Of a stretch of DNA of 15,948 bases, positions 1-13,209 are shown in pieces; positions within the stretch are counted from its first letter, which is position 1; each line of letters begins with the position of its first letter. The DNA comes from a virus. Taxonomy: Duplodnaviria > Heunggongvirae > Uroviricota > Caudoviricetes. Position numbers and translations under genes: made by a program. Location of the stretch: IMG/VR virus record IMGVR_UViG_2617271049_000005. The stretch is one strand, 5' to 3'. The notes under the pieces are model-generated. The model did not search any database, was not told the origin of the DNA, and saw only the letters and a program-made list of their open reading frames with translations.

Positions 1-38
1 TTTAATCGTGAAGGTTTTCCCGGACTGACTGACGCCGG

Positions 39-893
39 TCAGCAGTTCGTCATCAGGGCGTCACCGCCACCACCGGTGGCCTTGCTGCGGCGCTGCTGGG
101 TCAGACTTTCGGTGTTGTCGAGACTGTTTTTCAGGCGGCTGAATGCCTGACTGGTTTTATCCGCCCTGTCAGTCACCTCCTGCTTAAGTGCGGAAAAGGC
201 GGTTTCCACCTCAGCGAGGCGCTGCTCAGTGGCGCTCAGTTTTTCCTGCACATGTTCAGCAACAGCGGTCACCGCTTCATGCACGTCATTCAGACGGGCG
301 TCATCGCTGGCCTGTTTGCGGCCAAAAATGGATTTCACCTTTTCGGTCAGGGCGGTGAACACGGTTTCAGGCAGGTCTTCAAATTCCAGCTCAACAGGCG
401 TTGCCACTGAAATCAGGTTTTCAGGGCTTAATTTGAAGCGGTTCAGGGGGTTGTGTTTTGCCGTGCGGCAGAATTCCAGGTATTCCGTACCGAGGCTTGC
501 CGGGTCATCGGTGACGGCCAGCCCCACCAGATAACATTTGCCGGTGTTGGCAAAGTTCGGCTGAATTTCCATTGAGGTGTAGACCTTCTGCGCGGCCTTG
601 TTCATCGCGATAAGGTCATCGGTCGGGGTGATTTTCGCAAACAGCGCCCATTTGCCTTTCAGCGCCGAATCATCGTCAATCTTTTCGGCCTTCAGTTCGA
701 CCACATCGCCATAACGTTTAAAAATACCGTCAGGCAGGATGCCGCGCAGATGTTCCAGGTTAATGCGGCAACCATAGACACGCGGGTCAAAGGTTTCCGC
801 CATTTCCTGAATATCCTGCGCACTGATGACACGCCCGTCACAGGTGTCACCCTCAACGCCGATACGAAAGAATTTTGAGACTTTTTTTGCCAT
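39..893 (-). CDS. O: capsid scaffolding protein gpO
   Basis: Minus-strand ORF 39..959. Starting at the internal ATG (893..891, protein MAKKVSKFFRIGVEGD...) gives 284 aa, the recalled size of P2 gpO. Divergent from P, as in P2. The longer 306-aa ORF start is probably an upstream alternative start artefact. Confidence 0.8.
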   Translation of the reverse strand: MAKKVSKFFRIGVEGDTCDGRVISAQDIQEMAETFDPRVYGCRINLEHLRGILPDGIFKRYGDVVELKAEKIDDDSALKGKWALFAKITPTDDLIAMNKAAQKVYTSMEIQPNFANTGKCYLVGLAVTDDPASLGTEYLEFCRTAKHNPLNRFKLSPENLISVATPVELEFEDLPETVFTALTEKVKSIFGRKQASDDARLNDVHEAVTAVAEHVQEKLSATEQRLAEVETAFSALKQEVTDRADKTSQAFSRLKNSLDNTESLTQQRRSKATGGGGDALMTNC

Positions 894-1066
894 TGTCAGG
901 AGTCCTGAATAGTGAGTAGAGGAGTCACATGTCGGCATCAGTTTCCCGACGATGCGCATCCTCCGCCATCAGTCCCGGATGGCTTATCACTGACACAACA
1001 GCACCTTAGCGAATCGCGGGGCGCGACTCAGTAGCCTTGCCGTGTATTCATCACGGCGAGGTATTC
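894..1066. promoter_or_regulatory. divergent late promoter region between O and P
   Basis: 173-bp gap between divergently transcribed O and P, where P2 places its Ogr-dependent late promoters. I found no clean TGT-N12-ACA Ogr site by eye, so this is positional inference only. A CCGTG-N7-CACGG dyad lies at about 1040..1058. Confidence 0.3.
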
Positions 1067-2839
1067 ATGACCATCACCACAGACACCACTCTTTTACACG
1101 ACCCGCGTCGTCAGGCGGCGCTGCTGTACTGGCAGGGGTTTTCCGTGCCGCAGATTGCCGCCATGTTGCAGATGAAACGTCCGACGGTGCAGAGCTGGAA
1201 ACAGCGCGACGGCTGGGACAGCGTTGCCCCCATCAGCCGTGTCGAAATGAGTCTGGAAGCGCGACTGACCCAGCTCATCATCAAACCGCAGAAAACCGGT
1301 GGTGACTTCAAGGAAATTGACCTGCTGGGACGCCAGATTGAACGACTGGCACGGGTAAACCGTTACAGTCAGACCGGCAACGAGGCAGACCTTAATCCGA
1401 ACGTCGCTAACCGCAACAAAGGCGGGCGTCGCAAACCGAAAAAGAATTTTTTCAGTGACGAGGCCATCGAAAAGCTGGAGCAGATTTTCTTTGAGCAGTC
1501 TTTCGACTATCAGTTGCACTGGTATCGCGCCGGGCTTGAGCACCGCATCCGCGATATCCTGAAATCCCGCCAGATTGGCGCGACGTTTTATTTTTCCCGC
1601 GAGGCGCTGCTGCGCGCCCTGAAAACCGGTCATAACCAGATTTTTCTGTCGGCCAGTAAAACGCAGGCGTATGTGTTCCGCGAATACATCATCGCCTTTG
1701 CCCGGCTGGTTGACGTTGACCTGACCGGTGACCCGATTGTCCTGGGCAATAACGGTGCAAAACTGATTTTTCTCGGCACCAACTCCAACACCGCGCAGAG
1801 CCATAACGGCGACCTGTACGTCGACGAGATTTTCTGGATCCCGAATTTTCAGGTACTGCGTAAGGTGGCATCAGGTATGGCCTCACAGAGTCACCTGCGT
1901 TCGACCTATTTCTCCACCCCGTCCACGCTGGCGCACGACGCCTACCCGTTCTGGTCGGGTGAACTGTTCAACCGGGGACGCGCCAGCGCCGCCGAACGCG
2001 TGGAAATCGACGTCAGTCATAACGCCCTTGCCGGTGGGCTTCTCTGTGCGGACGGCCAGTGGCGACAGATTGTCACCATTGAGGACGCCCTGAAAGGTGG
2101 CTGCACGCTGTTCGACATTGAGCAGCTCAAACGCGAAAACAGCGCCGACGATTTTAAAAACCTGTTCATGTGTGAATTTGTTGACGACAAGGCGTCGGTG
2201 TTCCCGTTCGAGGAGCTGCAACGCTGCATGGTCGACACGCTGGAAGAATGGGAAGACTATGCGCCGTTTGCCGCGAATCCGTTCGGCTCCCGCCCGGTAT
2301 GGATTGGTTACGACCCGTCACACCGTGGCGACAGTGCCGGATGCGTGGTGCTGGCACCGCCGGTGGTGGCCGGTGGCAAATTCAGAATACTTGAGCGTCA
2401 CCAGTGGAAAGGCATGGACTTTGCCACTCAGGCGGAATCCATCCGCAAACTCACCGAAAAATACAACGTCGAATACATCGGTATTGATGCCACCGGCCTC
2501 GGTGTCGGCGTGTTCCAGCTCGTGCGCTCGTTCTATCCCGCCGCGCGCGACATCCGCTACACGCCGGAAATGAAAACCGCAATGGTGCTCAAGGCAAAAG
2601 ACGTCATCCGCCGTGGCTGTCTGGAATATGACGTCAGCGCCACCGACATCACCAGCTCGTTTATGGCTATCCGCAAGACCATAACCAGCAGCGGACGCAG
2701 CGCCACCTATGAGGCCAGCCGCAGCGAGGAAGCCAGCCACGCCGACCTCGCCTGGGCGACCATGCACGCCCTGTTAAATGAGCCACTCACCGCCGGTATC
2801 AGCACCCCGCTGACATCCACCATTCTGGAGTTTTACTGA
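1067..2839 (+). CDS. P: terminase ATPase (large) subunit gpP
   Basis: ORF 1037..2839. The ATG at 1067 (MTITTDTTLL...) is preceded by GAGGT at about 6 nt and gives 590 aa, the recalled size of P2 gpP. Its stop overlaps the Q start (TGATG). Confidence 0.85.
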   Translation: MTITTDTTLLHDPRRQAALLYWQGFSVPQIAAMLQMKRPTVQSWKQRDGWDSVAPISRVEMSLEARLTQLIIKPQKTGGDFKEIDLLGRQIERLARVNRYSQTGNEADLNPNVANRNKGGRRKPKKNFFSDEAIEKLEQIFFEQSFDYQLHWYRAGLEHRIRDILKSRQIGATFYFSREALLRALKTGHNQIFLSASKTQAYVFREYIIAFARLVDVDLTGDPIVLGNNGAKLIFLGTNSNTAQSHNGDLYVDEIFWIPNFQVLRKVASGMASQSHLRSTYFSTPSTLAHDAYPFWSGELFNRGRASAAERVEIDVSHNALAGGLLCADGQWRQIVTIEDALKGGCTLFDIEQLKRENSADDFKNLFMCEFVDDKASVFPFEELQRCMVDTLEEWEDYAPFAANPFGSRPVWIGYDPSHRGDSAGCVVLAPPVVAGGKFRILERHQWKGMDFATQAESIRKLTEKYNVEYIGIDATGLGVGVFQLVRSFYPAARDIRYTPEMKTAMVLKAKDVIRRGCLEYDVSATDITSSFMAIRKTITSSGRSATYEASRSEEASHADLAWATMHALLNEPLTAGISTPLTSTILEFY

Positions 2840-3876
2840 TGAGCAAGAAAAAAGGGAAAACACCGCAACCTGCGGCAAAAAAAATGACCGCCAGCGCCCC
2901 GAAAATGGAGGCATTCACCTTTGGTGAGCCGGTGCCGGTACTCGACCGCCGTGACATTCTGGATTACGTCGAGTGCATCAGTAACGGCAGATGGTATGAG
3001 CCGCCGGTCAGCTTTACCGGTCTGGCGAAAAGCCTGCGTGCTGCCGTGCATCACAGCTCGCCGATTTACGTCAAACGCAATATTCTGGCCTCGACATTTA
3101 TCCCGCATCCGTGGCTTTCCCAGCAGGATTTCAGCCGCTTTGTGCTGGATTTTCTGGTGTTCGGTAATGCGTTTCTGGAAAAGCGTTACAGCACCACCGG
3201 TAAGGTCATCAGACTGGAAACCTCACCGGCAAAATATACCCGCCGTGGCGTGGAGGAGGATGTTTACTGGTGGGTGCCGTCCTTCAACGAGCCGACAGCC
3301 TTCACGCCCGGCTCCGTGTTTCACCTGCTGGAGCCGGATATTAATCAGGAGCTGTACGGCCTGCCGGAATATCTCAGCGCCCTTAACTCTGCCTGGCTGA
3401 ATGAGTCGGCCACGCTGTTCCGCCGCAAGTATTACGAAAATGGCGCACATGCCGGATACATCATGTACGTCACCGATGCCGTGCAGGATCGCAACGATAT
3501 CGAAATGCTTCGCGAAAACATGGTTAAGTCGAAAGGCCGCAATAACTTTAAAAATCTGTTTCTCTATGCCCCGCAGGGGAAAGCCGACGGCATTAAAATT
3601 ATCCCGCTCAGTGAAGTGGCGACGAAGGACGATTTTTTTAATATCAAAAAAGCCAGCGCCGCAGACCTGCTGGACGCGCACCGCATCCCCTTTCAGTTGA
3701 TGGGCGGCAAGCCGGAGAACGTCGGGTCGCTGGGTGATATTGAGAAAGTGGCAAAGGTCTTTGTCCGCAATGAGCTTATCCNNNNNNNNNNACTGAACAT
3801 CGCCGCCTGCGGGCGGCTTTTTTACATCCCGTCATCACGCCCTCACACGCTCACAACCGCACAAAACACTCCTTAG
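2839..3876 (+). CDS. Q: portal protein gpQ (3' end uncertain because of N run)
   Basis: ORF 2839..3876, 345 aa including 4 X from the 10-nt N run at 3782..3791. Recalled P2 gpQ is about 344 aa. Translationally coupled to P. The frame after the N run cannot be verified; an alternative frame would stop at about 3794..3796. Confidence 0.7.
   Translation: MSKKKGKTPQPAAKKMTASAPKMEAFTFGEPVPVLDRRDILDYVECISNGRWYEPPVSFTGLAKSLRAAVHHSSPIYVKRNILASTFIPHPWLSQQDFSRFVLDFLVFGNAFLEKRYSTTGKVIRLETSPAKYTRRGVEEDVYWWVPSFNEPTAFTPGSVFHLLEPDINQELYGLPEYLSALNSAWLNESATLFRRKYYENGAHAGYIMYVTDAVQDRNDIEMLRENMVKSKGRNNFKNLFLYAPQGKADGIKIIPLSEVATKDDFFNIKKASAADLLDAHRIPFQLMGGKPENVGSLGDIEKVAKVFVRNELIXXXXLNIAACGRLFYIPSSRPHTLTTAQNTP
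3802..3823 (+). terminator. candidate intrinsic terminator (GC hairpin plus T6) near the 3' end of the Q-P operon
   Basis: GCCGCC (3802..3807), loop TGCG, GGCGGC (3812..3817), then TTTTTT (3818..3823). It lies inside the annotated Q reading frame downstream of the N run, so either the Q frame is mis-set by the gap or the hairpin sits in the last codons. Confidence 0.35.
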
Positions 3877-3965
3877 ACACACCAACGCCCCGACGCACAA
3901 TCTAAACGCCATCACGACGCGCTCAGACGCTGAAAAAATAAAATCAGCACCACCGCCAGCGCGCA

Positions 3966-3984
3966 GTGCTTTCCCCGCCTCGCC
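3966..3984. other. cos: cos site, 19-nt cohesive-end sequence
   Basis: GTGCTTTCCCCGCCTCGCC at 3966..3984 is the exact reverse complement of the P2/186 cohesive end as I recall it (GGCGAGGCGGGGAAAGCAC). Position between Q and old matches P2. Confidence 0.7.
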
Positions 3985-4178
3985 CGCCCGCTTCACGGGG
4001 CGGTTTTAATGCACCTTAATAAAACTAATGAGCCATCAGTATTTCCAGTCAAAAGCCAAGCCATATCACAGTTTCCCTTAATGCAATCTCATGCACCCTT
4101 GAATGCAACGACTATAAAATGTAAAAAAGCGTTTCGTATGAACTCATTGCATACAAATAGCACATTTAAGGAAAAATA

Positions 4179-5939
4179 ATGACTGTACGTCTTGCTTCAG
4201 TTTCAATTAGCAACTTTCGTTCTTGTAAGTCAACATCGGCTATTTTGCGCCCCTTCACTGCTTTAGTTGGTTATAATAACGCAGGAAAATCAAATATTAT
4301 CTTAGCAATTAAGTGGCTGTTAGATGGCTCTTTGATTTCAGAATCAGATGTGTACGATCCTACACACCCCGTATCCGTTGAAGGCGTTATTCAAGGTATA
4401 ACAGATGATACTCTGTCTTTGTTAACAGAAGAGAATCAACAAAAAATAGCTCCGTTTATAATTGACGGGACTCTTACCTTTGCAAGAAGACAGGAATTTA
4501 ATAAGGAAACAGGAAAAGCCAAAAAAAGTCTGGATGTATATGACGGTACCACGTGGAAGAAAAACCCTGGCGGCATAGATGGTGCAATCTCCAATATATT
4601 TCCGGAACCAATTCATATCCCTGCAATGTCTGACGCTGTCGAAGACTCAACAAAATGCAAAAACACGACCACAATAGGAAAGATACTTTCCGCAATTGTT
4701 TCTGAAATAAAACAAGAACACGAAGAAAAATTTTCAAAAAACATATCAGAAATAGGTAAATATCTTTCTCACAACGGTGAGAACAGATTAGAAAGCCTTA
4801 ATAAAATAGACTCAGGTGTAAATAAAAAAGTAAACCAATTTTTTCCTGACGTAAGTGTAAAGTTACACTTTCCCACACCGACATTAGATGAGATATTTAA
4901 ATCCGGCACTCTGAAAGTTTTTGAGTCTCGGGAAGATGAACCGGTAATGAGAGATATCAGCCGATTTGGTCACGGAACACAACGTTCCATTCAAATGGCA
5001 TTAATTCAATACCTGGCCGAAATAAAAAAAGAAAACAGCGAATCAAAAAAATCAAACACTTTGATTTTCATTGATGAACCTGAGTTATATTTACACCCTT
5101 CAGCCATTAATTCTGTCAGAGAATCACTTGTCACATTAAGTGAATCAGGGTATCAGGTTATAATATCAACTCACTCAGCCAGTATGCTTTCTGCAAAGCA
5201 TGCAGCAAATGCGATTCAGGTTTGTAAGGATTCTAATGGAACCATAGCAAGGAAGACTATATCTGAAAAAATCGAAGAATTATATAAATCTTCATCACCG
5301 CAATTGCACTCAGCATTCACGCTTTCTAATTCATCATACCTTTTATTTTCTGAAGAAGTTTTGCTTGTTGAAGGGAAAACAGAGACAAACGTTCTATATG
5401 CACTTTATAAAAAAATTAACGGACATGAACTCAACCCGAGTAAAATCTGCATTGTTGCCGTTGACGGTAAGGGTAGTTTATTTAAGATGTCACAAATCAT
5501 CAATGCCATCGGCATAAAAACAAGGATTCTAGCTGATTGTGATTTCTTATCAAATATTCTATTAACAGAGCATAAAGACTTACTTAGTACTGAATGTGAT
5601 AATCTATTGACTGCTTTGATTGAATCAATCAACTCAGGAGAGCTTAGTTTAAATACAAAAGTTACTACTTTTGAGTCATTCAAAAGCATTTCAAGCAAAG
5701 ACTTCATCAAAATATGTAACCATGAAAAAACACAAAAGCATATACATGAAATACATCAAAAATTGAAAGATAACGGAATCTATATATGGAAATCCGGTGA
5801 TATAGAGGCTGTTTATGGATTTGGTAAAAAACAAACTGAATGGGATAGTCTTTTAGATTGTTTATGTGATGAAAGCAAAGATGTTAGAGCAGTAATAAAA
5901 AAATATGATGAAATGGAAGATTTCATAAAATGGATTTAA
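4179..5939 (+). CDS. old: OLD-family ATP-dependent nuclease (ABC-type ATPase plus C-terminal TOPRIM); probable P2 Old
   Basis: 586 aa, the recalled size of P2 Old. Walker A GYNNAGKS near the N-terminus, signature-like GHGTQRS, Walker B LIFIDEPELYLHP, H-loop-like ISTHS, TOPRIM glutamate LLVEGKTE and DxD in ILADCDF. SD AAGGA 6 nt before ATG. Visibly AT-rich. Sits next to cos as old does in P2. Confidence 0.85.
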   Translation: MTVRLASVSISNFRSCKSTSAILRPFTALVGYNNAGKSNIILAIKWLLDGSLISESDVYDPTHPVSVEGVIQGITDDTLSLLTEENQQKIAPFIIDGTLTFARRQEFNKETGKAKKSLDVYDGTTWKKNPGGIDGAISNIFPEPIHIPAMSDAVEDSTKCKNTTTIGKILSAIVSEIKQEHEEKFSKNISEIGKYLSHNGENRLESLNKIDSGVNKKVNQFFPDVSVKLHFPTPTLDEIFKSGTLKVFESREDEPVMRDISRFGHGTQRSIQMALIQYLAEIKKENSESKKSNTLIFIDEPELYLHPSAINSVRESLVTLSESGYQVIISTHSASMLSAKHAANAIQVCKDSNGTIARKTISEKIEELYKSSSPQLHSAFTLSNSSYLLFSEEVLLVEGKTETNVLYALYKKINGHELNPSKICIVAVDGKGSLFKMSQIINAIGIKTRILADCDFLSNILLTEHKDLLSTECDNLLTALIESINSGELSLNTKVTTFESFKSISSKDFIKICNHEKTQKHIHEIHQKLKDNGIYIWKSGDIEAVYGFGKKQTEWDSLLDCLCDESKDVRAVIKKYDEMEDFIKWI

Positions 5940-6113
5940 CTTAATCTGATACTATTACAGCACAGTACTAAACCAATAGTGATAGGCTGTGCTTTACCCA
6001 AGGATGGTGATTTCAAAATCAGAATGTGCTATAAGTACGTCAATCTAGTAACCTAAACACACAAACAAATCAATCATTAAGATTTATAATTCTGGAATAT
6101 AAAAGGTGTTGAT

Positions 6114-6875
6114 ATGAAGAACATGGATATTGTGAAAGCTGTAAAAGATGGAATGAAAAAGTCAGCCGACGCAACTTATTTAATGGATTTCAGTTCTGGT
6201 GCAAAAATAAACACTGAATATGTAGCTACCGTATCTATAGGTCTATCGTTGTTAGAAATAAAATCTTTTCGCCATGGTGATTACAAAGTTATATTTGAGT
6301 ACCATACAAATAAATTCATTAATGCAACAGTTCCTTTATCGAAACGGTCTGACCCCCAAAAAATATTCTCAAAAAAAACTGTCAGAAAAAACACAAACAC
6401 AACAAGATCAGGCAGAATTGATATTGCCATATTGGACAGCAGACCATTTTTCGACATTCCAATATGTGCAATAGAAGTTAAAGGAAATGCCCCCTGTAAA
6501 AGTCTTTTATTTTCTGACATAAGAAGAAATCTTGAATACTTTAAACACACAGGCCCTACAGGAAATTCAAGTCTTGGCCTAGCATTAAACTGTTCATTCC
6601 ATTCATACAATGATTCAACTAAAAAAAATTACTGCACTACAATCCACCATAAGGAAGACATGATAAGGAAATTAAAAAACAAATATAAAAAATACATATC
6701 CGAATTAAATGAAGAAATTCCAGACGATATATCTGTTACAATTGATGTTTTTACAGCAGCAGAGCATTTACTATCTCCTGATGCTGACCAATATGAATAC
6801 GAATCACATATAGATGACTTACATTTGACGCTTGGCGTTATGGTTATATTCGAACGAAAATCGATACTCAATTGA
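6114..6875 (+). CDS. tin: Tin-position cargo protein with PD-(D/E)xK-like motif; probable P2 Tin
   Basis: 253 aa, about 29 kDa, which fits my recollection of P2 Tin. Very AT-rich. SD AGGTG 5 nt before ATG and a TATAAT at 6085..6090. Lies between old and orf91/A as tin does in P2. Motif RIDIAILD...ICAIEVKG (D103/D108, E121-x-K123). Identity as Tin is by synteny and size only. Confidence 0.55.
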   Translation: MKNMDIVKAVKDGMKKSADATYLMDFSSGAKINTEYVATVSIGLSLLEIKSFRHGDYKVIFEYHTNKFINATVPLSKRSDPQKIFSKKTVRKNTNTTRSGRIDIAILDSRPFFDIPICAIEVKGNAPCKSLLFSDIRRNLEYFKHTGPTGNSSLGLALNCSFHSYNDSTKKNYCTTIHHKEDMIRKLKNKYKKYISELNEEIPDDISVTIDVFTAAEHLLSPDADQYEYESHIDDLHLTLGVMVIFERKSILN

Positions 6876-6913
6876 TATCATTTGTGGCTTAGAATAATTT
6901 GCTTATTTACAAT

Positions 6914-7240
6914 TTAAAGCAAATATATTGCCACCGTTCTTCGCCTTAGATTTATAAAAAATGTGGAGGATACTGCCAGCTTGACAGTCAGCGGCAGTAT
7001 CTCACCTAGTATTCTGTGCAGCAAGACATAATCTTCCAGCCAGTCTGACAGGTCAGTAACATCTGTTATCCGGGCTTCAACCTTTCGCCCCGTAAACACA
7101 CCCTGCACCCATTCATGCAAAATCAACGTGTCCCCGCGCTCATAATTACGATCTTTTTTCCGAAACTCTGCGCGTTTCTTTCCTTCCAGTACAAGGTCGA
7201 AATATTTTGCGTGCAGCTTTACCTCGTGAATTTTTGCCAT
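6914..7240 (-). CDS. ASCH-like small protein in the P2 orf91 position, translationally coupled to A
   Basis: ATG at 7240..7238 overlaps the A stop (TGATG on the minus strand) and gives 108 aa (MAKIHEVKLHAKYFDLVLEGKKRAEFRKKD...). Contains the ASCH-type GxKxxExR signature (GKKRAEFR). The longer 120-aa ORF start lies inside A. Confidence 0.6.
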   Translation of the reverse strand: MAKIHEVKLHAKYFDLVLEGKKRAEFRKKDRNYERGDTLILHEWVQGVFTGRKVEARITDVTDLSDWLEDYVLLHRILGEILPLTVKLAVSSTFFINLRRRTVAIYLL

Positions 7241-9525
7241 CATGTCCACTCCATTACTGTTGAGAATCCCGGCCACTCATCAGCGACCGGATACGTGAAT
7301 TTTTTCCCGTCATAATTTACGGTTGCTCCACGCGCCAGCGCCTCAAGTTCCCATCGCTGAGGCCTGATACCGTTCTGAGCAAGGTCAACGCGGATACGGG
7401 TGATCTGCAATCGTTCAGACCTGGTCAGTCTGGCAGATGGTGCAATTTCATGCGGTTTTAACGGGCTTCCGTTTCTTTGCTGACGGTTTGGCGTTCTCAT
7501 GTCGTATTTTAATGCGCCCCTGAGCGCCCTCACGACCTCCGGTTCATTCCATTCAATAACACCGTCATCAACCAGATTAAGCACTGCTGCGGCGTGCTCA
7601 GAAGGTGTGGGAGCCGGTAACGAAGTATCACCACCGGTGAGCTTTCCACAGTTATTGACAGGACTCCGAGGCGCGGCGATGCCGCTTTTTAAAGTCAGAG
7701 GCTCAACGACCGGAACTTTCGGCACAATGCGCCAGTCCGTCGTTCTGGTGATATGAATATGACGCGCGCCGAGATGCGGCGCGTAAATGCCGACCACTCT
7801 CTCGACTTCTTCCTCGTACTCGTTAACTTCATCCGACGGACTACGGGCGACCCTGACAGTCTGACAATCGCGCGGGACATTTGCCCCACCCTGCGCGCTG
7901 ATATACAACGCAAAATCACCACTGTCTGCGGCGGCGCGTGCAGCCTCGACGCGCTCGTCAAACTCATCAGCAATGCTGACGCCGCGAGGCAATTTGCGTA
8001 GTTCACGGTAAGCCCCCATTGTCGGCAGACCAACCGTTTTAAATTGTGGGATGCGCCACGTTGACGCCCATGCGGTAACAGCCGCAGCAGTGTCTTTCAG
8101 CGGTCTGCCGGTATCGTTATCGAGCTGACCATCCAGTGCATAGCCATCGATGTTTTTTGAGATGTATTTCGCGATATACCCCGCAGCACCGCCCTGGTTA
8201 AGGTGTTTTGCCTGAAAACGGTTTCGCGCGGCTCCTCTTTCGTCGCCATCCTCTTTGAGCGCATAGCGACGCATGATTTCGATAATCTGGTTACGCTGGC
8301 GTGGATGACAAAAAAGCATCATATGCCAGTGCGGCGTTCCGTCGTGGTGTGGCTCGACGACACGCAAACCGTAGACCTGTAAATCATTATCCTTGAATGC
8401 CGTGCGCATCAGGCTCCAGATACGGCAGAGATAACGCTGCGCATCCTTTGGATTAAATGCCTCATCGTTCCAGCCGTGATTAAGCTGAACGGTTTTACTT
8501 TCGCCTTTTCCGACCTGACGTGTCGGGTGATACTTTGACGGCGCGGTCAGCGTGATAAACATCCCCAAATCACCCTCTGCGGCGGCGTAACGCTCAATAC
8601 CGGCAATGGTGTTCATCAGCTCCATCCGGCGAATTTCAGGATTAGAAATACTGCCCATCACCTTACTGATAAGGTCGATGCGCTCGCCGGTTTCCCTGTT
8701 TTCAAGGTCACACGATTTAAGAAATTCCAGATTTGCCTGGCGGCGTGCACGCACATCACGAATGGCATGTTTACTGGCATAAGGAGAACGGTCTTTATTC
8801 ACCTCCCCGACAGCAATCAGTAACGCCTCATGCCAGCGCATACGCTGGCCTTTGAGCTGATGAGTCCACCACTCATCGTTAAACAGACGGGCAATGGCAG
8901 AATATGCCTGCCTCGTGGTCATCTGTCCTTTACGGTATTTTTTCCAGTAAAGCGGGGAAATATTGAAAGCACGTGCAGCGCCAGCAACATGACCATAGAG
9001 GTGAGCCTGCGCCTCATCCGTAAACAGCGATTCTTTTTCGCCATGTGCATCCACCCAGGCATCGCTGAGTTCCTCATACATCATGAAAAGCTGCGATGAG
9101 ATACGGGCGGCAAACTTTTTCAGCTCCTTGTCATTCATTCCAGGCAGGCGCGCATAGTGGTCACGCTCTGCCAGAAACAGCAACGACGCGTCGGTGTTCA
9201 TTTCATGGCGCTGATTCACGCGCTCAATGCGCGGCCATAAACGACGCTGAAAAGTGGATGTGAGGAAATAAAACCCGTGCACCGGGCTTTTATTGCGCCG
9301 GATGTAGTCATAGCGTGAAGTAAACAGCGAACGCAAAAAGTAAGGCAGGCGGTTAATCGTGGATAAAACACCTTGCACCTGACGCATCTCGTCACGTGTA
9401 AGGGGTCTTTCGCGCCCGACGGCCTCGCGTGGCGCGTTCCATGCATAAGCACCGGTAAACATCTTACCGGTGCCTGCGGCAAATGCTGACGGAGGGACAA
9501 AACGCCCGGAGGCTTTAACGGCCAT
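7240..9525 (-). CDS. A: replication initiation endonuclease gpA (rolling-circle initiator)
   Basis: ORF 7240..9567. The internal ATG at 9525 (MAVKASGRFVPP...) gives 761 aa, the recalled size of P2 gpA. Largest early-operon gene, upstream of the tin/old cargo as in P2. Confidence 0.85.
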   Translation of the reverse strand: MAVKASGRFVPPSAFAAGTGKMFTGAYAWNAPREAVGRERPLTRDEMRQVQGVLSTINRLPYFLRSLFTSRYDYIRRNKSPVHGFYFLTSTFQRRLWPRIERVNQRHEMNTDASLLFLAERDHYARLPGMNDKELKKFAARISSQLFMMYEELSDAWVDAHGEKESLFTDEAQAHLYGHVAGAARAFNISPLYWKKYRKGQMTTRQAYSAIARLFNDEWWTHQLKGQRMRWHEALLIAVGEVNKDRSPYASKHAIRDVRARRQANLEFLKSCDLENRETGERIDLISKVMGSISNPEIRRMELMNTIAGIERYAAAEGDLGMFITLTAPSKYHPTRQVGKGESKTVQLNHGWNDEAFNPKDAQRYLCRIWSLMRTAFKDNDLQVYGLRVVEPHHDGTPHWHMMLFCHPRQRNQIIEIMRRYALKEDGDERGAARNRFQAKHLNQGGAAGYIAKYISKNIDGYALDGQLDNDTGRPLKDTAAAVTAWASTWRIPQFKTVGLPTMGAYRELRKLPRGVSIADEFDERVEAARAAADSGDFALYISAQGGANVPRDCQTVRVARSPSDEVNEYEEEVERVVGIYAPHLGARHIHITRTTDWRIVPKVPVVEPLTLKSGIAAPRSPVNNCGKLTGGDTSLPAPTPSEHAAAVLNLVDDGVIEWNEPEVVRALRGALKYDMRTPNRQQRNGSPLKPHEIAPSARLTRSERLQITRIRVDLAQNGIRPQRWELEALARGATVNYDGKKFTYPVADEWPGFSTVMEWT

Positions 9526-9790
9526 ATGAGCCAAAAGCCTCTGAACAACGCTTGCTGAGTTGCTCAACCTGCACGTTTAAATCAGCAAAAGACTTTGCGC
9601 TTCCGGTCAGAATATCGTGATGCATCAGGCCTGAAACGAGCTGGCTTAATTTCGGGTAATAACCAACCACCGCCAGCCATTCCTGACCGGCGTTTTTACC
9701 GCTTTCCGCTCTCTTTTTCTCGTGGAGAATAAACTGAAAGCTGTCACTGGTAACGACATAACGTTCGCCAATTTCAATACGAATACTCAT
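9515..9790 (-). CDS. small early-operon protein (P2 orf83 position)
   Basis: 91-aa ORF whose ATG overlaps the orf82 stop (ATGA) and whose 3' end overlaps the A start by about 11 nt. Assigned by synteny. Confidence 0.5.
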   Translation of the reverse strand: MSIRIEIGERYVVTSDSFQFILHEKKRAESGKNAGQEWLAVVGYYPKLSQLVSGLMHHDILTGSAKSFADLNVQVEQLSKRCSEAFGSYGR

Positions 9791-10011
9791 GCCGTTCTCC
9801 GGTAATGTTTGTTTTTTGCTTCAAAGACTGACTGACAGGAAACACAACGCGTGGCTGACGGGTAAGCCGCACGACGGGCAGCAGGTATTGGCGCGTCACA
9901 CTCTTCGCAAACCAGCGCAGAAGCACCGCAATGTTTTACCCTTGCCGCGTTAATCTGACGCTCCAGTAATTCAGCCTGTTGTTCCTGAATAAAATCTACG
10001 TTGTCCGGCAT
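9787..10011 (-). CDS. C4 zinc-finger protein, TraR/DksA-like (P2 orf82 position)
   Basis: 74 aa with CxxC...CxxC (VCEECDAPIP...TRCVSCQSV). AAGGAA SD-like sequence upstream of the ATG at 10011..10009. Confidence 0.65.
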   Translation of the reverse strand: MPDNVDFIQEQQAELLERQINAARVKHCGASALVCEECDAPIPAARRAAYPSATRCVSCQSVFEAKNKHYRRTA

Positions 10012-10084
10012 TACCAGTTCCTTTTGTCGTTCAGTTTTTTAAATTCATCAGCGCAATAGCTGGCGATTTCTGTCGTTAATTTCG

Positions 10085-10321
10085 TCAGTTCATCCACGGA
10101 GGAAATTTGCTTGTGAAATACAGCGCGTTTAACAAGTAAATTGACCACATCAGACNNNNNNNNNNGTTTAATTCACTCTGATAAATCGCGATAACAGATT
10201 CAGTTATTTCGCGTTTTTCTTTATCAAGACCAAGTTGAATAAGAGACAAATCGCCATTTTTCATAACGGCGATTTTTAAGGCGTTATTCAGTAATACAAC
10301 TGAACGAGAACAGGACATCAA
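10085..10321 (-). CDS. small early-operon protein (P2 orf81 position); interrupted by N run
   Basis: 78-aa ORF with ATG overlapping the orf80 stop. Contains the N run at 10156..10165, so length and frame downstream of the gap are uncertain. Confidence 0.4.
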
Positions 10322-10542
10322 AGCACCTCCCCGCGAGACAATCCGATATTGTGAAATTTTTCCGACTCCTGACTGAGCAGCTCGACTATCTCCACGCGGG
10401 ATAACTCCGCCTTTGTGATGTGGCGAATCATGGCGTCAAGATGAGAAGAAAAGCGCGTCGCTGCGTCGGCCTGTGCTTCGGTTCTGGCCTGTTGCAGCAG
10501 TAATGCGTATATACCGCACTGATTTTCAGAAACTGTATGCAT
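10318..10542 (-). CDS. small early-operon protein (P2 orf80 position)
   Basis: The ORF track starts at a TTG (10575). The internal ATG at 10542..10540 has a GGAG SD about 6 nt upstream and gives 74 aa ([12 protein letters not shown]...). Confidence 0.5.
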
Positions 10543-10605
10543 AACTTTCTCCAGGCAAAAAGAAGCCCCGCACAATTAAGTGCGTTAAAAACTCTGGTTA
10601 ATTAC

Positions 10606-11106
10606 TTAATGCAGATATTGCTCCGGTTTTACCGACGTCAGAATTGTCGGTGCATACTCAAACAGACTGAATAATTCACGTAATGCACGGAATAAAGCAT
10701 CACGCCAGTAACATGACTCTTCATTAATTCGCCAGTATGGCTGGTTGAATTCTTTTTCAGTCAATCCGGCATGCATAAATAAAGTACGACGCTGACTGAC
10801 TGTTAAAAAACTAATATATGCATACTCACTTGCGCCAACCTGACGGCGTTTTGAGAATGCACCACGCAATTCATCAATTGCACATACCAGTCGTTCACGT
10901 TCGACGTCGTTCATTTCTTCAAAACACATCGTTGCGTGACGCTGTTTTAACTGAGCATGGAAGCAAACCGTTAACCGTTCGCGCTCCATCATCTGATTAT
11001 AATAATCACATGTATCCTGCCAGCGAGGAACGGCAAGATGCTTACCAATTATCCGGCGCATAGCTGCTGGCTGTTTTTCAACGAGATTGAGCGTCATCAC
11101 TGTCAT
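10606..11106 (-). CDS. B: replication protein gpB
   Basis: ORF 10606..11112. The second ATG (11106, MTVMTLNL...) has a GGAGG SD at about 8 nt and gives 166 aa, the recalled size of P2 B. Position between cox/orf78 and A. Confidence 0.65.
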   Translation of the reverse strand: MTVMTLNLVEKQPAAMRRIIGKHLAVPRWQDTCDYYNQMMERERLTVCFHAQLKQRHATMCFEEMNDVERERLVCAIDELRGAFSKRRQVGASEYAYISFLTVSQRRTLFMHAGLTEKEFNQPYWRINEESCYWRDALFRALRELFSLFEYAPTILTSVKPEQYLH

Positions 11107-11273
11107 TTCCATACCCTCCGGCTTTTCAGAAAGGTCAGAGCCTTTTTTAACGGACTCTGTTTTTTGGTGCGGATAATGATTCCCTTACGCCCCTTACCGT
11201 GGGTGATGGTGAAGTCAATCGCCCTGGGGCTTTCGTTACGCAGTAACTGAGCAATACAACGAGGCTCATTCAT
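11103..11273 (-). CDS. small early-operon protein (P2 orf78 position)
   Basis: Internal ATG at 11273..11271 (MNEPRCIAQ...) is preceded by AGGAGA at 5 nt and gives 56 aa. Its stop overlaps the B start. Confidence 0.45.
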   Translation of the reverse strand: MNEPRCIAQLLRNESPRAIDFTITHGKGRKGIIIRTKKQSPLKKALTFLKSRRVWK

Positions 11274-11283
11274 ACGGTTCTCC

Positions 11284-11559
11284 TTAACGTGGTTCACCGA
11301 GACCTAACCACATCAACCAGCCGTCACGAATCTCTTTAGGGCGGCTTTCATAAGCCAGTTTTAGTCCGTTATTCCATGCCGGAAGGTATACCCAATATTC
11401 ACCTGCACGACCTGAAGCTGATTGTGGATCGGTCATATCAATTACAGGCAGCTTTCCTTTATCGATCATCCGACGAACCGCTCCTGTCGATTTTCCTATT
11501 AGTTTTGCGAACTCCTGATAAGGAATCGCATCAGTCATGAGTGTTACTTGCTTGCTCAT
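11284..11559 (-). CDS. cox: Cox (excisionase / lytic-switch repressor of Pc)
   Basis: 91 aa, the recalled size of P2 Cox. First gene of the early operon, divergent from C. Confidence 0.75.
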   Translation of the reverse strand: MSKQVTLMTDAIPYQEFAKLIGKSTGAVRRMIDKGKLPVIDMTDPQSASGRAGEYWVYLPAWNNGLKLAYESRPKEIRDGWLMWLGLGEPR

Positions 11560-11673
11560 GTCGTCCTCTAGCCCTCATGAATTGCGTTTAATGTCTTATA
11601 ATGCCTTTTAGTGCCCACATCCAAGCACTAAACAATCTACATCTAAACTAAATACTATTGAGATCTAAACACC
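11560..11673. promoter_or_regulatory. immunity switch region (face-to-face Pe/Pc promoters with C-repressor operator repeats)
   Basis: Intergenic between cox (minus) and C (plus). Direct repeats ATCTAAAC at 11641..11648 and 11663..11670 (22 bp centre to centre) plus a degenerate copy CACTAAAC at 11627..11634; the repeats flank a -10-like TAGTAT on the minus strand. TATAAT at 11597..11602 on the plus strand. Confidence 0.5.
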
Positions 11674-11973
11674 ATGTCAAACACGATAAGCGAGAAGATA
11701 GTCTTAATGCGAAAATCAGAGTATTTGAGCAGACAACAACTTGCTGATTTAACAGGGGTTCCGTATGGCACGCTGAGTTACTATGAAAGTGGTCGTTCAA
11801 CACCTCCAACAGATGTCATGATGAACATCCTGCAGACCCCACAATTCACCAAATACACTTTATGGTTCATGACCAATCAGATCGCTCCTGAGTCCGGGCA
11901 AATTGCGCCCGCTCTCGCACACTTTGGGCAAAACGAAACAACGTCGCCCCACTCCGGTCAAAAGACTGGTTAA
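11674..11973 (+). CDS. C: immunity repressor C (HTH)
   Basis: 99 aa, the recalled size of P2 C. HTH-like segment LSRQQLADLTGVPYGTLSYYESG. Immediately upstream of int on the same strand. Confidence 0.8.
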   Translation: MSNTISEKIVLMRKSEYLSRQQLADLTGVPYGTLSYYESGRSTPPTDVMMNILQTPQFTKYTLWFMTNQIAPESGQIAPALAHFGQNETTSPHSGQKTG

Positions 11974-12088
11974 CAATTCATCGTGAATATATTCATCACA
12001 AGTGCCTACTATTGGTGGCTAAATTTCAGCCACCACGAAAAAAGCGATTAGTAGTCGCAAAAAAACACACCACTCGGAGGGTTTTCTG

Positions 12089-13102
12089 ATGGCAATCAAA
12101 AAACTCGATGATGGTCGATATGAAGTGGACATCCGCCCTACTGGACGTAATGGAAAACGCATCCGTAGGAAGTTTGATAAGAAAAGCGAAGCTGTCGCTT
12201 TCGAGAAATACACGTTGTACAACCACCACAATAAAGAATGGCTATCAAAACCAACAGACAAGCGACGTCTGTCGGAGCTGACACAGATCTGGTGGGATTT
12301 AAAGGGTAAACACGAAGAGCATGGGAAATCTAATCTTGGAAAAATTGAAATCTTCACAAAAATAACGAATGACCCATGCGCATTTCAAATTACGAAATCG
12401 CTTATCAGCCAGTACTGCGCCACACGAAGAAGTCAGGGTATTAAACCTTCGAGTATCAATCGTGATTTAACATGTATTAGCGGCATGTTTACAGCCCTGA
12501 TTGAAGCGGAGTTATTCTTTGGTGAGCACCCTATCAGAGGGACAAAAAGGCTTAAGGAGGAAAAACCAGAAACAGGCTATCTAACACAGGAAGAAATTGC
12601 CTTACTGCTTGCAGCACTTGACGGCGACAATAAAAAGATTGCGATTCTTTGCCTGAGTACAGGAGCACGTTGGGGAGAAGCAGCTCGTTTGAAAGCAGAA
12701 AATATCATCCATAACCGCGTCACGTTTGTTAAAACGAAAACAAACAAACCACGCACCGTCCCGATCTCAGAGGCTGTTGCCAAAATGATCGCGGATAACA
12801 AACGAGGTTTTTTATTCCCTGATGCTGATTACCCTCGCTTCAGACGAACAATGAAAGCAATAAAACCGGATTTGCCAATGGGGCAAGCCACACATGCACT
12901 AAGGCACAGCTTTGCCACTCATTTCATGATTAATGGAGGAAGTATTATCACGCTACAACGGATACTAGGTCACACGCGGATTGAGCAAACTATGGTTTAC
13001 GCTCATTTTGCGCCAGAGTACCTTCAGGACGCCATTTCTCTTAATCCGCTAAGAGGTGGTACTGAGGCCGAGAGTGTCCACACAGTGTCCACAGTAGAGT
13101 AA
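12089..13102 (+). CDS. int: tyrosine integrase
   Basis: 337 aa, the recalled size of P2 Int. C-terminal catalytic region HALRHSFATHFMINGGSIITLQRILGHTRIEQTMVYAH with conserved R, H-x-x-R and Y. GGAGGG SD 8 nt before ATG. Adjacent to the att core. Confidence 0.9.
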   Translation: MAIKKLDDGRYEVDIRPTGRNGKRIRRKFDKKSEAVAFEKYTLYNHHNKEWLSKPTDKRRLSELTQIWWDLKGKHEEHGKSNLGKIEIFTKITNDPCAFQITKSLISQYCATRRSQGIKPSSINRDLTCISGMFTALIEAELFFGEHPIRGTKRLKEEKPETGYLTQEEIALLLAALDGDNKKIAILCLSTGARWGEAARLKAENIIHNRVTFVKTKTNKPRTVPISEAVAKMIADNKRGFLFPDADYPRFRRTMKAIKPDLPMGQATHALRHSFATHFMINGGSIITLQRILGHTRIEQTMVYAHFAPEYLQDAISLNPLRGGTEAESVHTVSTVE

Positions 13103-13182: not shown

Positions 13183-13209
13183 ATCTCCCTTACACGGGCT
13201 TATTTTTTA
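13183..13209. other. att: phage attachment core (prophage/host junction)
   Basis: AATCTCCCTTACACGGGCTTATTTTTT is the exact reverse complement of the 27-bp P2 att core as I recall it (AAAAAATAAGCCCGTGTAAGGGAGATT). It lies about 80 bp past the int stop, with host genes beyond. Confidence 0.65.

Follow-up and report, generated by a model that had tools for sequence, protein, structure and literature searches.

The AT-rich stretch between the cos site and the replication gene A in the window (the whole 15,948-nucleotide stretch of DNA that was analysed, IMG/VR record IMGVR_UViG_2617271049_000005) is almost certainly the P2 phage cassette for lysogenic conversion, old-tin, located in the cos-proximal hotspot of a P2 prophage and encoding two products that are independent of each other. 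Positions 3966–7400 share 99.9% DNA identity with the P2 genome (AF063097; also NC_001895), and the position, orientation, gene sizes and spacers of the locus are all the same as in that reference. The cos-to-A interval contains two DNA differences from P2, with Old identical and Tin differing by two residues, and nothing was found that contradicts the identification. The old-tin locus is already known, and there is nothing new in the locus itself; the added value is modest and lies with Tin, whose likeness to a restriction-endonuclease-type nuclease is less documented than the rest of the locus.

Hotspot Position and Prophage Context

The slot is bounded by the portal gene Q, which ends near 3800, together with the joined cos site at 3966–3984, and by the replication gene A (7240–9525, minus strand), its right-hand anchor, which was mapped from the gpA annotation of AF063097. 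The 19-nt cohesive-end sequence, gtgctttccccgcctcgcc, matches cosR of AF063097 (locus positions 1–19). The cos site marks the left boundary of the slot, with 3985 as the first base beyond it, and at the other end 7240 is the first base of the stop codon of A. The gpA-gpQ slot has been described as a variable defence hotspot of P2-like phages, with old and tin as its reference cargo, and the anti-phage activity of both genes was confirmed in the same study (Rousset et al., 2022; PMC9122126). The stretch studied here lies between Q/cos and A, and the cargo at this position varies in related phages amid conserved flanks. Of 5426 complete E. coli genomes, 378 have the flank, and 17 of these 378 also carry the full cargo. 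The published hotspot, the slot comparison and these counts bear out the suggestion in the preliminary description that P2-type phages swap anti-phage cargo here.

The match to P2 ends in the attP core, at 13209, and gives way to E. coli DNA carrying yegR, yegS and a DeoR-family regulator. This is a P2 prophage integrated beside E. coli yegR, in agreement with the P2-type prophage that had been proposed. The surrounding prophage is not strictly P2, with late genes 98.3% identical to those of P2, a cos-Q spacer 89.6% identical and an early region 99.5% identical.

Base Composition and the Variable Segment

In 500-nt windows the GC content is 0.53–0.60 at positions 1–4000, falls to 0.30–0.38 at 4001–7000 and returns to 0.49–0.57 past 7000, confirming the earlier impression that the slot is far more AT-rich than the backbone. 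The low values extend over the cos-to-old leader (0.39), old (0.35), the old-tin spacer (0.32) and tin (0.33), compared with 0.53 for gene A and 0.56 for the late genes, and are seen at third codon positions as well (0.28 in old and 0.27 in tin, against 0.55 in A and 0.71 in P).

Comparison with phages Wphi and L-413C places the breakpoints at 4013 and 7020, defining an exchangeable cargo segment of ∼3.0 kb at 4014–7019 (plus strand) with a GC content of 34%, compared with 53–56% in the flanks. The last backbone bases on the left are a conserved cos-adjacent stretch (3984–4013, plus strand) containing a terminator-like match, a GC-rich hairpin followed by T's at 3984–4003; homology to L-413C spans 3966–4013 and then ends. 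The cargo had been delimited as 3985–7240, and whilst the AT-rich cargo does lie there, the segment that is swapped is slightly narrower. No direct or inverted repeats of the kind expected for a transposon- or integron-type insertion were found flanking the cassette, and an Rfam search of the entire window gave no match.

On the right, homology to other P2-like phages restarts at 7020, within orf91 (6914–7243, minus strand), a gene overlooked in the preliminary description. It encodes a 109-aa DUF3850/ASCH protein identical to P2 Orf91, with Pfam DUF3850 at residues 5–75, and is the last gene of the early operon; it belongs to the backbone and not to the cargo. Its 3′ tail, the codons past the DUF3850 domain (6914–7019), lies inside the variable segment. 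The two plus-strand genes opposite A that were described as a two-gene cassette are present, but the interval also holds this third gene.

The old Gene and Its Product

The gene old (4179–5939, plus strand) encodes a 586-aa protein with an ABC-type ATPase and a TOPRIM nuclease, and alignment turned the likely assignment to P2 Old into identity at 586 of 586 residues with AAD03309.1, the founding member. Pfam detects AAA_15 (E 6.9e-28), AAA_21 (E 8.8e-20) and OLD-like_TOPRIM at residues 389–455 (E 1.2e-17), and the protein matches the PADLOC Old profile (E 1.3e-214), with weaker matches to GajA and AriA. The ATPase motifs are evident as a Walker A (GYNNAGKS, 31–38), a Walker B (LIFIDE, 295–300) and an H-loop at H332, and the TOPRIM motifs as catalytic-type E398/E402 and a DxD (DCD) at 453–455. 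Residues H332 and E402, which were mutated in published studies of Old (PMC12445682; PMC13096335; bioRxiv 10.64898/2026.07.10.737580), are both present.

As in other class 1 OLD nucleases, such as that of Thermus scotoductus (PDB 6P74), an N-terminal ABC ATPase and a C-terminal TOPRIM domain occupy one polypeptide. The neighbors of old are cos and tin, as befits the stand-alone gene of class 1, and no UvrD-type helicase ORF, the mark of class 2 and Gabija, is found within 3985–7240. The protein therefore differs from Gabija, in which GajA has a helicase partner, and from PARIS (AriA/AriB), in which the TOPRIM is a separate protein. It is the founder of the class 1 OLD-family nucleases itself and not a variant.

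The annotated old-tin mRNA has two start sites, at 4133 and 4135 (plus strand; misc_features of AF063097 at locus positions 168 and 170), lying 44–46 nt upstream of old, and is a single mRNA in the reference record; the DNA around these sites is identical to AF063097. The annotated promoter was missed by a simple sigma-70 consensus scan, which returned fewer sites overall than in shuffled sequences, so the transcript start is placed from the reference annotation. Between old and tin lies an intergenic spacer of 174 nt (5940–6113, plus strand; 32% GC), and expression of the pair is constitutive in the lysogen according to the literature.

Old has been characterized as an ABC-ATPase/TOPRIM abortive-infection tRNase (PMC12445682; PMC13096335; bioRxiv 10.64898/2026.07.10.737580), which is lethal in recB/recC hosts, excludes lambda and cleaves the tRNA anticodon stem (PMC12445682; bioRxiv 10.64898/2026.07.10.737580). 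These published activities should apply to the protein encoded here because it is identical. Following the published description, Old would rest as an inactive tetramer until an infecting phage disables RecBCD, as lambda does through Gam, or presents hairpins of ssDNA at its origin of replication; the activated enzyme would then cut the anticodon stem, mainly of tRNA-Thr(UGU), halting translation and aborting the infection.

The tin Gene and Its Product

The gene tin (6114–6875, plus strand) encodes the 253-aa T-even exclusion protein of P2, with a predicted restriction-endonuclease-like fold. It is identical to AAD03308.1 at 251 of 253 residues, the substitutions being N2K and R27S; serine is the residue found at position 27 in most relatives, where the reference P2 protein has arginine. 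Profile matches include PADLOC Tin (E 3.7e-98 over residues 3–249) and phrog_9821 (E 5e-176). The partner of Old had been named as likely Tin, and the alignment upholds this, thereby excluding the alternative that the pair is a less-characterized variant containing some other protein.

The mechanism of Tin has reportedly been understood so far through a “gp32 poisoning” model dating from 1997. All Tevenvirinae, and only those, are sensitive to Tin, which is described as blocking T-even phages by poisoning their ssDNA-binding protein, gp32 (PMC8594841), and bioRxiv 10.1101/2022.08.27.505566 cites a core replication protein as the route of escape from Tin.

Acquisition of the Cassette and Independence of Old and Tin

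Composition by itself does not distinguish horizontal acquisition of foreign cargo from selection for low GC in place (e.g., through H-NS silencing or expression tuning), and elsewhere in the early region of P2 the GC content, 0.42–0.48 at 9750–13000, is likewise below that of the late genes. Selection in place is nevertheless extremely improbable in view of the comparative evidence. Related phages are ∼95–96% identical in the flanks up to the sharp breakpoints at 4013 and 7020, yet the genes that they carry between these points are unrelated; Wphi, for instance, has a cytosine methylase there and L-413C just one hypothetical gene. Identity to P2 drops from 99.9% in the cassette to only 89.6% in the neighboring cos-Q spacer, which indicates mosaic exchange, and relatives of Tin are found in several other mobile elements. 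Diverged old-tin orthologues at this site in every P2-like phage would point to evolution in place, and the genome and phage comparisons show the opposite. A single two-component defence system, with Tin as partner or effector of Old, would agree with the adjacency of the genes on the same strand and their annotation as one mRNA, with the same arrangement of a diverged pair in another P2-like phage (Tin 83% identical), with an “Old-tin” entry in a review table and with the joint cloning of old and tin by Rousset et al. (PMC9122126). This is, however, very unlikely: several sites of Tin homologues have no OLD-type neighbor, Old alone confers both defence and toxicity (PMC13096335; PMC12445682; bioRxiv 10.64898/2026.07.10.737580), Old and Tin, treated as separate systems in assays, differed in phage spectrum (PMC8594841), and the full phenotype from single-gene constructs, Old against lambda and Tin against T-even phages, is reported in the cited papers. 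Old and Tin are each a single-gene system, independent of the other, and since relatives of Tin occur without Old, the term “two-gene cassette” should not be taken to imply a two-component system.

Predicted Fold of Tin and a Possible Nuclease Activity

The suggestion that the 253-aa protein is PD-(D/E)xK-like is supported by its predicted fold and a conserved motif. An AlphaFold2 model built on a 22-sequence alignment (a single-sequence run gave a pLDDT of 41 and was unusable) has the predicted alpha-beta-beta-beta-alpha-beta core of this fold. In the model, strands two and three of the core carry the motif, D...(D/E)-x-K, with D103 on a predicted strand at 101–108 and E121-x-K123 on another at 115–125. 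Across 62 relatives with 16–46% identity, residues E35, E62, D103, E121, K123, D135 and R138 do not vary. A Pfam scan of Tin and the 62 relatives found nothing above noise, placing them in no curated nuclease family; a profile made from the Tin alignment found nothing relevant among PDB sequences, only a chance coiled-coil match, and Foldseek, run with the 22-sequence model, had no significant match in the PDB. The PD-(D/E)xK fold is that of the type II restriction endonucleases BamHI, BglII, OkrAI and BstYI and of the CBASS effector NucC, with which Tin shares only 9–13% identity, and tin differs from restriction enzymes and CBASS in having no adjoining cognate methyltransferase or cyclic-nucleotide synthase. 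From the modelled fold and the motif, we infer that Tin may be a metal-dependent, BamHI/BglII/NucC-type nuclease of the PD-(D/E)xK superfamily. Neither a report of Tin as such a nuclease, or of Tin nuclease activity, nor a dedicated modern paper on Tin structure or mechanism was found in the literature search, with subscription literature mostly outside its scope.

The predicted fold, together with a motif of catalytic type that is strictly conserved, offers a directly testable alternative to gp32 poisoning, in which gp32 or gp32-coated ssDNA would be the trigger or guide of Tin and not a passively poisoned target. We tentatively favor this reading, at a little under even chances, in which Tin would be an active nuclease whose cleavage is licensed or directed by gp32 or gp32-coated ssDNA, and the founder of an unannotated single-gene family. 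The classical model, in which Tin is non-catalytic and binds and poisons gp32 stoichiometrically, the endonuclease-like fold being only a scaffold, has perhaps one chance in three of being correct. It needs no catalysis and agrees with the poisoning described in the literature (PMC8594841), with escape mutations in a core replication protein (bioRxiv 10.1101/2022.08.27.505566) and with the absence of a nuclease-family match in sequence or a significant Foldseek match in the PDB. Invariance of the acidic-acidic-lysine constellation of PD-(D/E)xK enzymes down to 16% identity, however, is not what one would expect of a pure binder, and relatives of Tin occur in other mobile elements and in other Enterobacterales (e.g., Pectobacterium and Klebsiella), in which the partner is not necessarily T-even gp32. 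In addition, in other defences with escape mutants in phage SSB genes, it is the SSB or SSB-presented ssDNA that activates an enzymatic effector. Retron-Eco8, AbpAB, Hna and DARNA are described as responding to phage SSBs, and phages escape them by mutations in their SSB gene; the likeness of Tin to these systems would be confined to the trigger, as suggested by its gp32-dependent phenotype, and the proteins are unrelated. DARNA, considered as a relative of Tin and also an SSB/ssDNA-activated defence, was rejected since it is a HEPN protein (tRNase).

The Tin Family

Scanning genome contigs, each species represented by one genome, for Tin peptide patterns gave no confirmed relative, and the broader Tin alignment (A2) is too divergent for deriving such patterns. 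The Tin family, of ∼250 aa and with 194 cluster representatives, has no Pfam model, and this wider unannotated family is now reached by defence-annotation tools only through the narrow Tin profile. If the nuclease reading is true, its members would be single-gene defence nucleases moving among P4-like islands and the moron slots of P2. Five other contexts, in phage and satellite slots, contain Tin homologues without Old, and those with no OLD-type neighbor include homologues between P2-type S and V genes, after tail-fibre assembly genes and in AlpA-containing islands.

Identity and composition of the old-tin cassette

Over 3966–7400 the window is 99.9% identical to bacteriophage P2 (AF063097 / NC_001895; megablast against phage records), where the gene order annotated at this stretch is old, tin, orf91, A. 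Only two base differences from P2 were found between cos and A in an ungapped comparison, both within tin. All 586 residues of Old match AAD03309.1, Tin carries two substitutions relative to AAD03308.1 (N2K and R27S), and Orf91 is identical to its P2 counterpart. The preliminary description had assigned the pair to P2 Old and Tin, an assignment it would have dropped at less than 30% identity; since the identities are at or near 100%, it stands. Taken as a whole, that observation is confirmed and its interpretation supported, and the feature is an already known one, the type example of its kind. Profile matches agree with the annotation, with PADLOC recognizing Old (E 1.3e-214) and Tin (E 3.7e-98), PHROGs giving phrog_4747 and phrog_9821, and Pfam placing AAA_15, AAA_21 and OLD-like_TOPRIM on Old and DUF3850/ASCH on Orf91, with no match on Tin. 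At Tin codon 27 (6192–6194) the window encodes serine, as do most relatives, and the P2 reference record of 1998 has arginine; the R27 reference allele, or its sequence, is the outlier.

GC content in 500-nt windows is 0.53–0.60 up to 4000, 0.30–0.38 at 4001–7000 and 0.49–0.57 beyond 7000, a clear trough that bears out the AT-rich interval previously noticed between cos and A (0.30–0.38 inside against 0.49–0.60 in the flanks). By segment, GC content is 0.35 in old, 0.33 in tin and 0.32 in the spacer between them, and 0.53 in gene A and 0.56 in the late genes on the left; at third codon positions it is 0.28 in old and 0.27 in tin, against 0.55 in A and 0.71 in P. The P2 early/immunity region (9750–13000; orf80–83, B, cox, C and int) is intermediate in composition, its 42–48% GC being above that of the cassette and below that of the late genes. 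As described beforehand, two plus-strand ORFs, old (4179–5939, 586 aa) and tin (6114–6875, 253 aa), run opposite to A, which is on the minus strand together with orf91 (6914–7243). The 19-nt P2 cohesive-end sequence is present in joined form at 3966–3984, so the interval originally proposed, 3985–7240, exactly spans the space from cos to the A stop codon.

Identity with P2 stops at 13209, within the attP core, and from there to 15948 the sequence is E. coli chromosomal DNA, with yegR, yegS and a gene for a DeoR/GlpR-family regulator; the element is therefore a prophage, with its host junction on the int side. In E. coli K-12 this site presumably harbours the ogrK-yegZ P2 remnant. The window also contains two runs of exactly 10 N. 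That at 3782–3791 replaces 87 nt of P2 (P2 192–278) at the 3′ end of Q; the ORF listed for Q (2839–3876) crosses this gap, which makes its end unreliable. That at 10156–10165, in the orf80–83 region, appears to stand for around 10 nt, as the P2 alignment crosses it with only one gap opening.

Exchange at the cos-proximal slot

The gpA–gpQ cos-proximal region of P2-like phages is a defence hotspot, with 1,650 gene arrangements among 18,150 occurrences, and old and tin have been named as its reference cargo (Rousset et al., PMC9122126). Some part of the interval is matched in 378 of 5,426 complete E. coli genomes, mostly the orf91/A flank alone, and the entire cargo is present in only 17. In the comparison across P2-like phages, homology to Wphi and L-413C runs from cos to 4013 and resumes at 7020; between these breakpoints the genes of Wphi include a cytosine methylase, and the only gene of L-413C is a hypothetical one. 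Such variable cargo between conserved flanks, together with the genome counts, supports the hotspot description.

The right breakpoint lies inside orf91, directly past the end of the DUF3850 domain (residues 5–75), and the last ∼35 codons of P2 orf91 are thus exchanged AT-rich DNA, the C-terminal tail of Orf91 (6914–7019) being encoded by the cargo. This tail varies among P2-like phages, Orf91 being 93 aa long in Wphi, 147 aa in L011 (a locus from another P2-like phage) and 150 aa in L-413C. Identity to P2 is 99.9% in the cassette (4014–7019), 99.5% in the early region, 98.3% in the late genes and 89.6% in the cos-Q spacer (3792–3984); the cassette is closer to P2 than its surroundings are, and the prophage is a mosaic relative to reference P2, as expected of an exchanged module. 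No repeats flanking the cassette were found, and no Rfam family matched anywhere in the window. A GC-rich hairpin followed by T's (3984–4003) adjoins cos within the homologous stretch up to 4013. The hairpin is also conserved in L-413C, and it points towards the old promoter region; it may protect the cassette against read-through or form part of the packaging signal.

Functions of Old and Tin

As the protein is identical to P2 Old, the published mechanism is applicable here. Old is expressed constitutively in the lysogen and becomes toxic once lambda Gam inactivates RecBCD; it is an ATP-dependent tRNA endonuclease that cuts both anticodon-stem strands at a paired CNG motif, preferring tRNA-Thr(UGU), and this cleavage leads to translation arrest (PMC12445682). 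An inactive tetramer is reported to open to active dimers, and ssDNA hairpins at the lambda origin to activate Old (2026 preprint, 10.64898/2026.07.10.737580). T-even phages encode an Old inhibitor, Gp49.2 (PMC13096335). The motifs that these papers require were all found, namely Walker A (31–38), Walker B (295–300), H332, E398/E402 and DxD (453–455).

For Tin, every Tevenvirinae phage assayed was sensitive and no others were (PMC8594841), and escape mutations, in the account given by a later citing work, fall in a core replication protein (Mosig 1997, cited in 10.1101/2022.08.27.505566). A word-indexed search returned only 23 clusters of close relatives, all of ∼250 aa and, where named, from Enterobacterales; an exhaustive profile search returned 194 cluster representatives of distant relatives at E ≤ 0.001. 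A structure model from the single sequence was unusable (pLDDT 41), but that from a 22-sequence alignment was confident (pLDDT 84, pTM 0.85). It places D103 on strand 101–108 and E121-x-K123 on the following strand (115–125), with helix 34–46 and strand 57–64 before and helix 129–144 and strand 156–166 after. The only invariant columns in 62 full-length relatives (16–46% identity) are E35, E62, D103, E121, K123, D135 and R138. In the model, this order of elements and the motif placement correspond to the canonical PD-(D/E)xK arrangement, and the predicted fold and invariant D103 and E121-x-K123 agree with the PD-(D/E)xK-like label given to Tin earlier. Structure and motif would together place Tin in the restriction-endonuclease-like superfamily, at the head of a wider family left unannotated: none of the curated sequence families matches Tin or its relatives, and no paper stating its fold was found in the literature searched.

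With the catalytic-type residues invariant, Tin is somewhat more likely than not a nuclease whose activity gp32, or ssDNA coated with gp32, licenses or directs, which would parallel other SSB-linked defences. A non-catalytic Tin is a less probable but appreciable possibility; it would share the same predicted fold. The fold and motif evidence for Tin's superfamily and its wider family is the sole part of this analysis that goes beyond existing records; it offers a testable refinement of an older model rather than a novel type of system.

Old and Tin as joint or separate defences

The old-tin pair is annotated as a single mRNA, and in another P2-like phage a diverged pair, whose Tin is 83% identical, occupies this slot in the same arrangement. 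Elsewhere Tin relatives stand alone: they lie between S and V in a P2-like prophage, follow the tail-fibre assembly gene in another P2-type tail cluster, and sit in Klebsiella islands that also encode AlpA and a DUF927 protein and in an AlpA-containing Pectobacterium island. Because these are single-gene inserts in other variable slots (L015 5001–5804, L005 6001–6777, L013 5001–5762 and L002 6001–6771, all loci from other phages or islands), Tin is a mobile, stand-alone module. Published work has likewise used Old alone (PMC13096335; PMC12445682; 10.64898/2026.07.10.737580) and assayed Tin separately from Old (PMC8594841). The lone Tin relatives and this separate treatment point to old and tin each being an independent single-gene defence, the two being carried together by P2.
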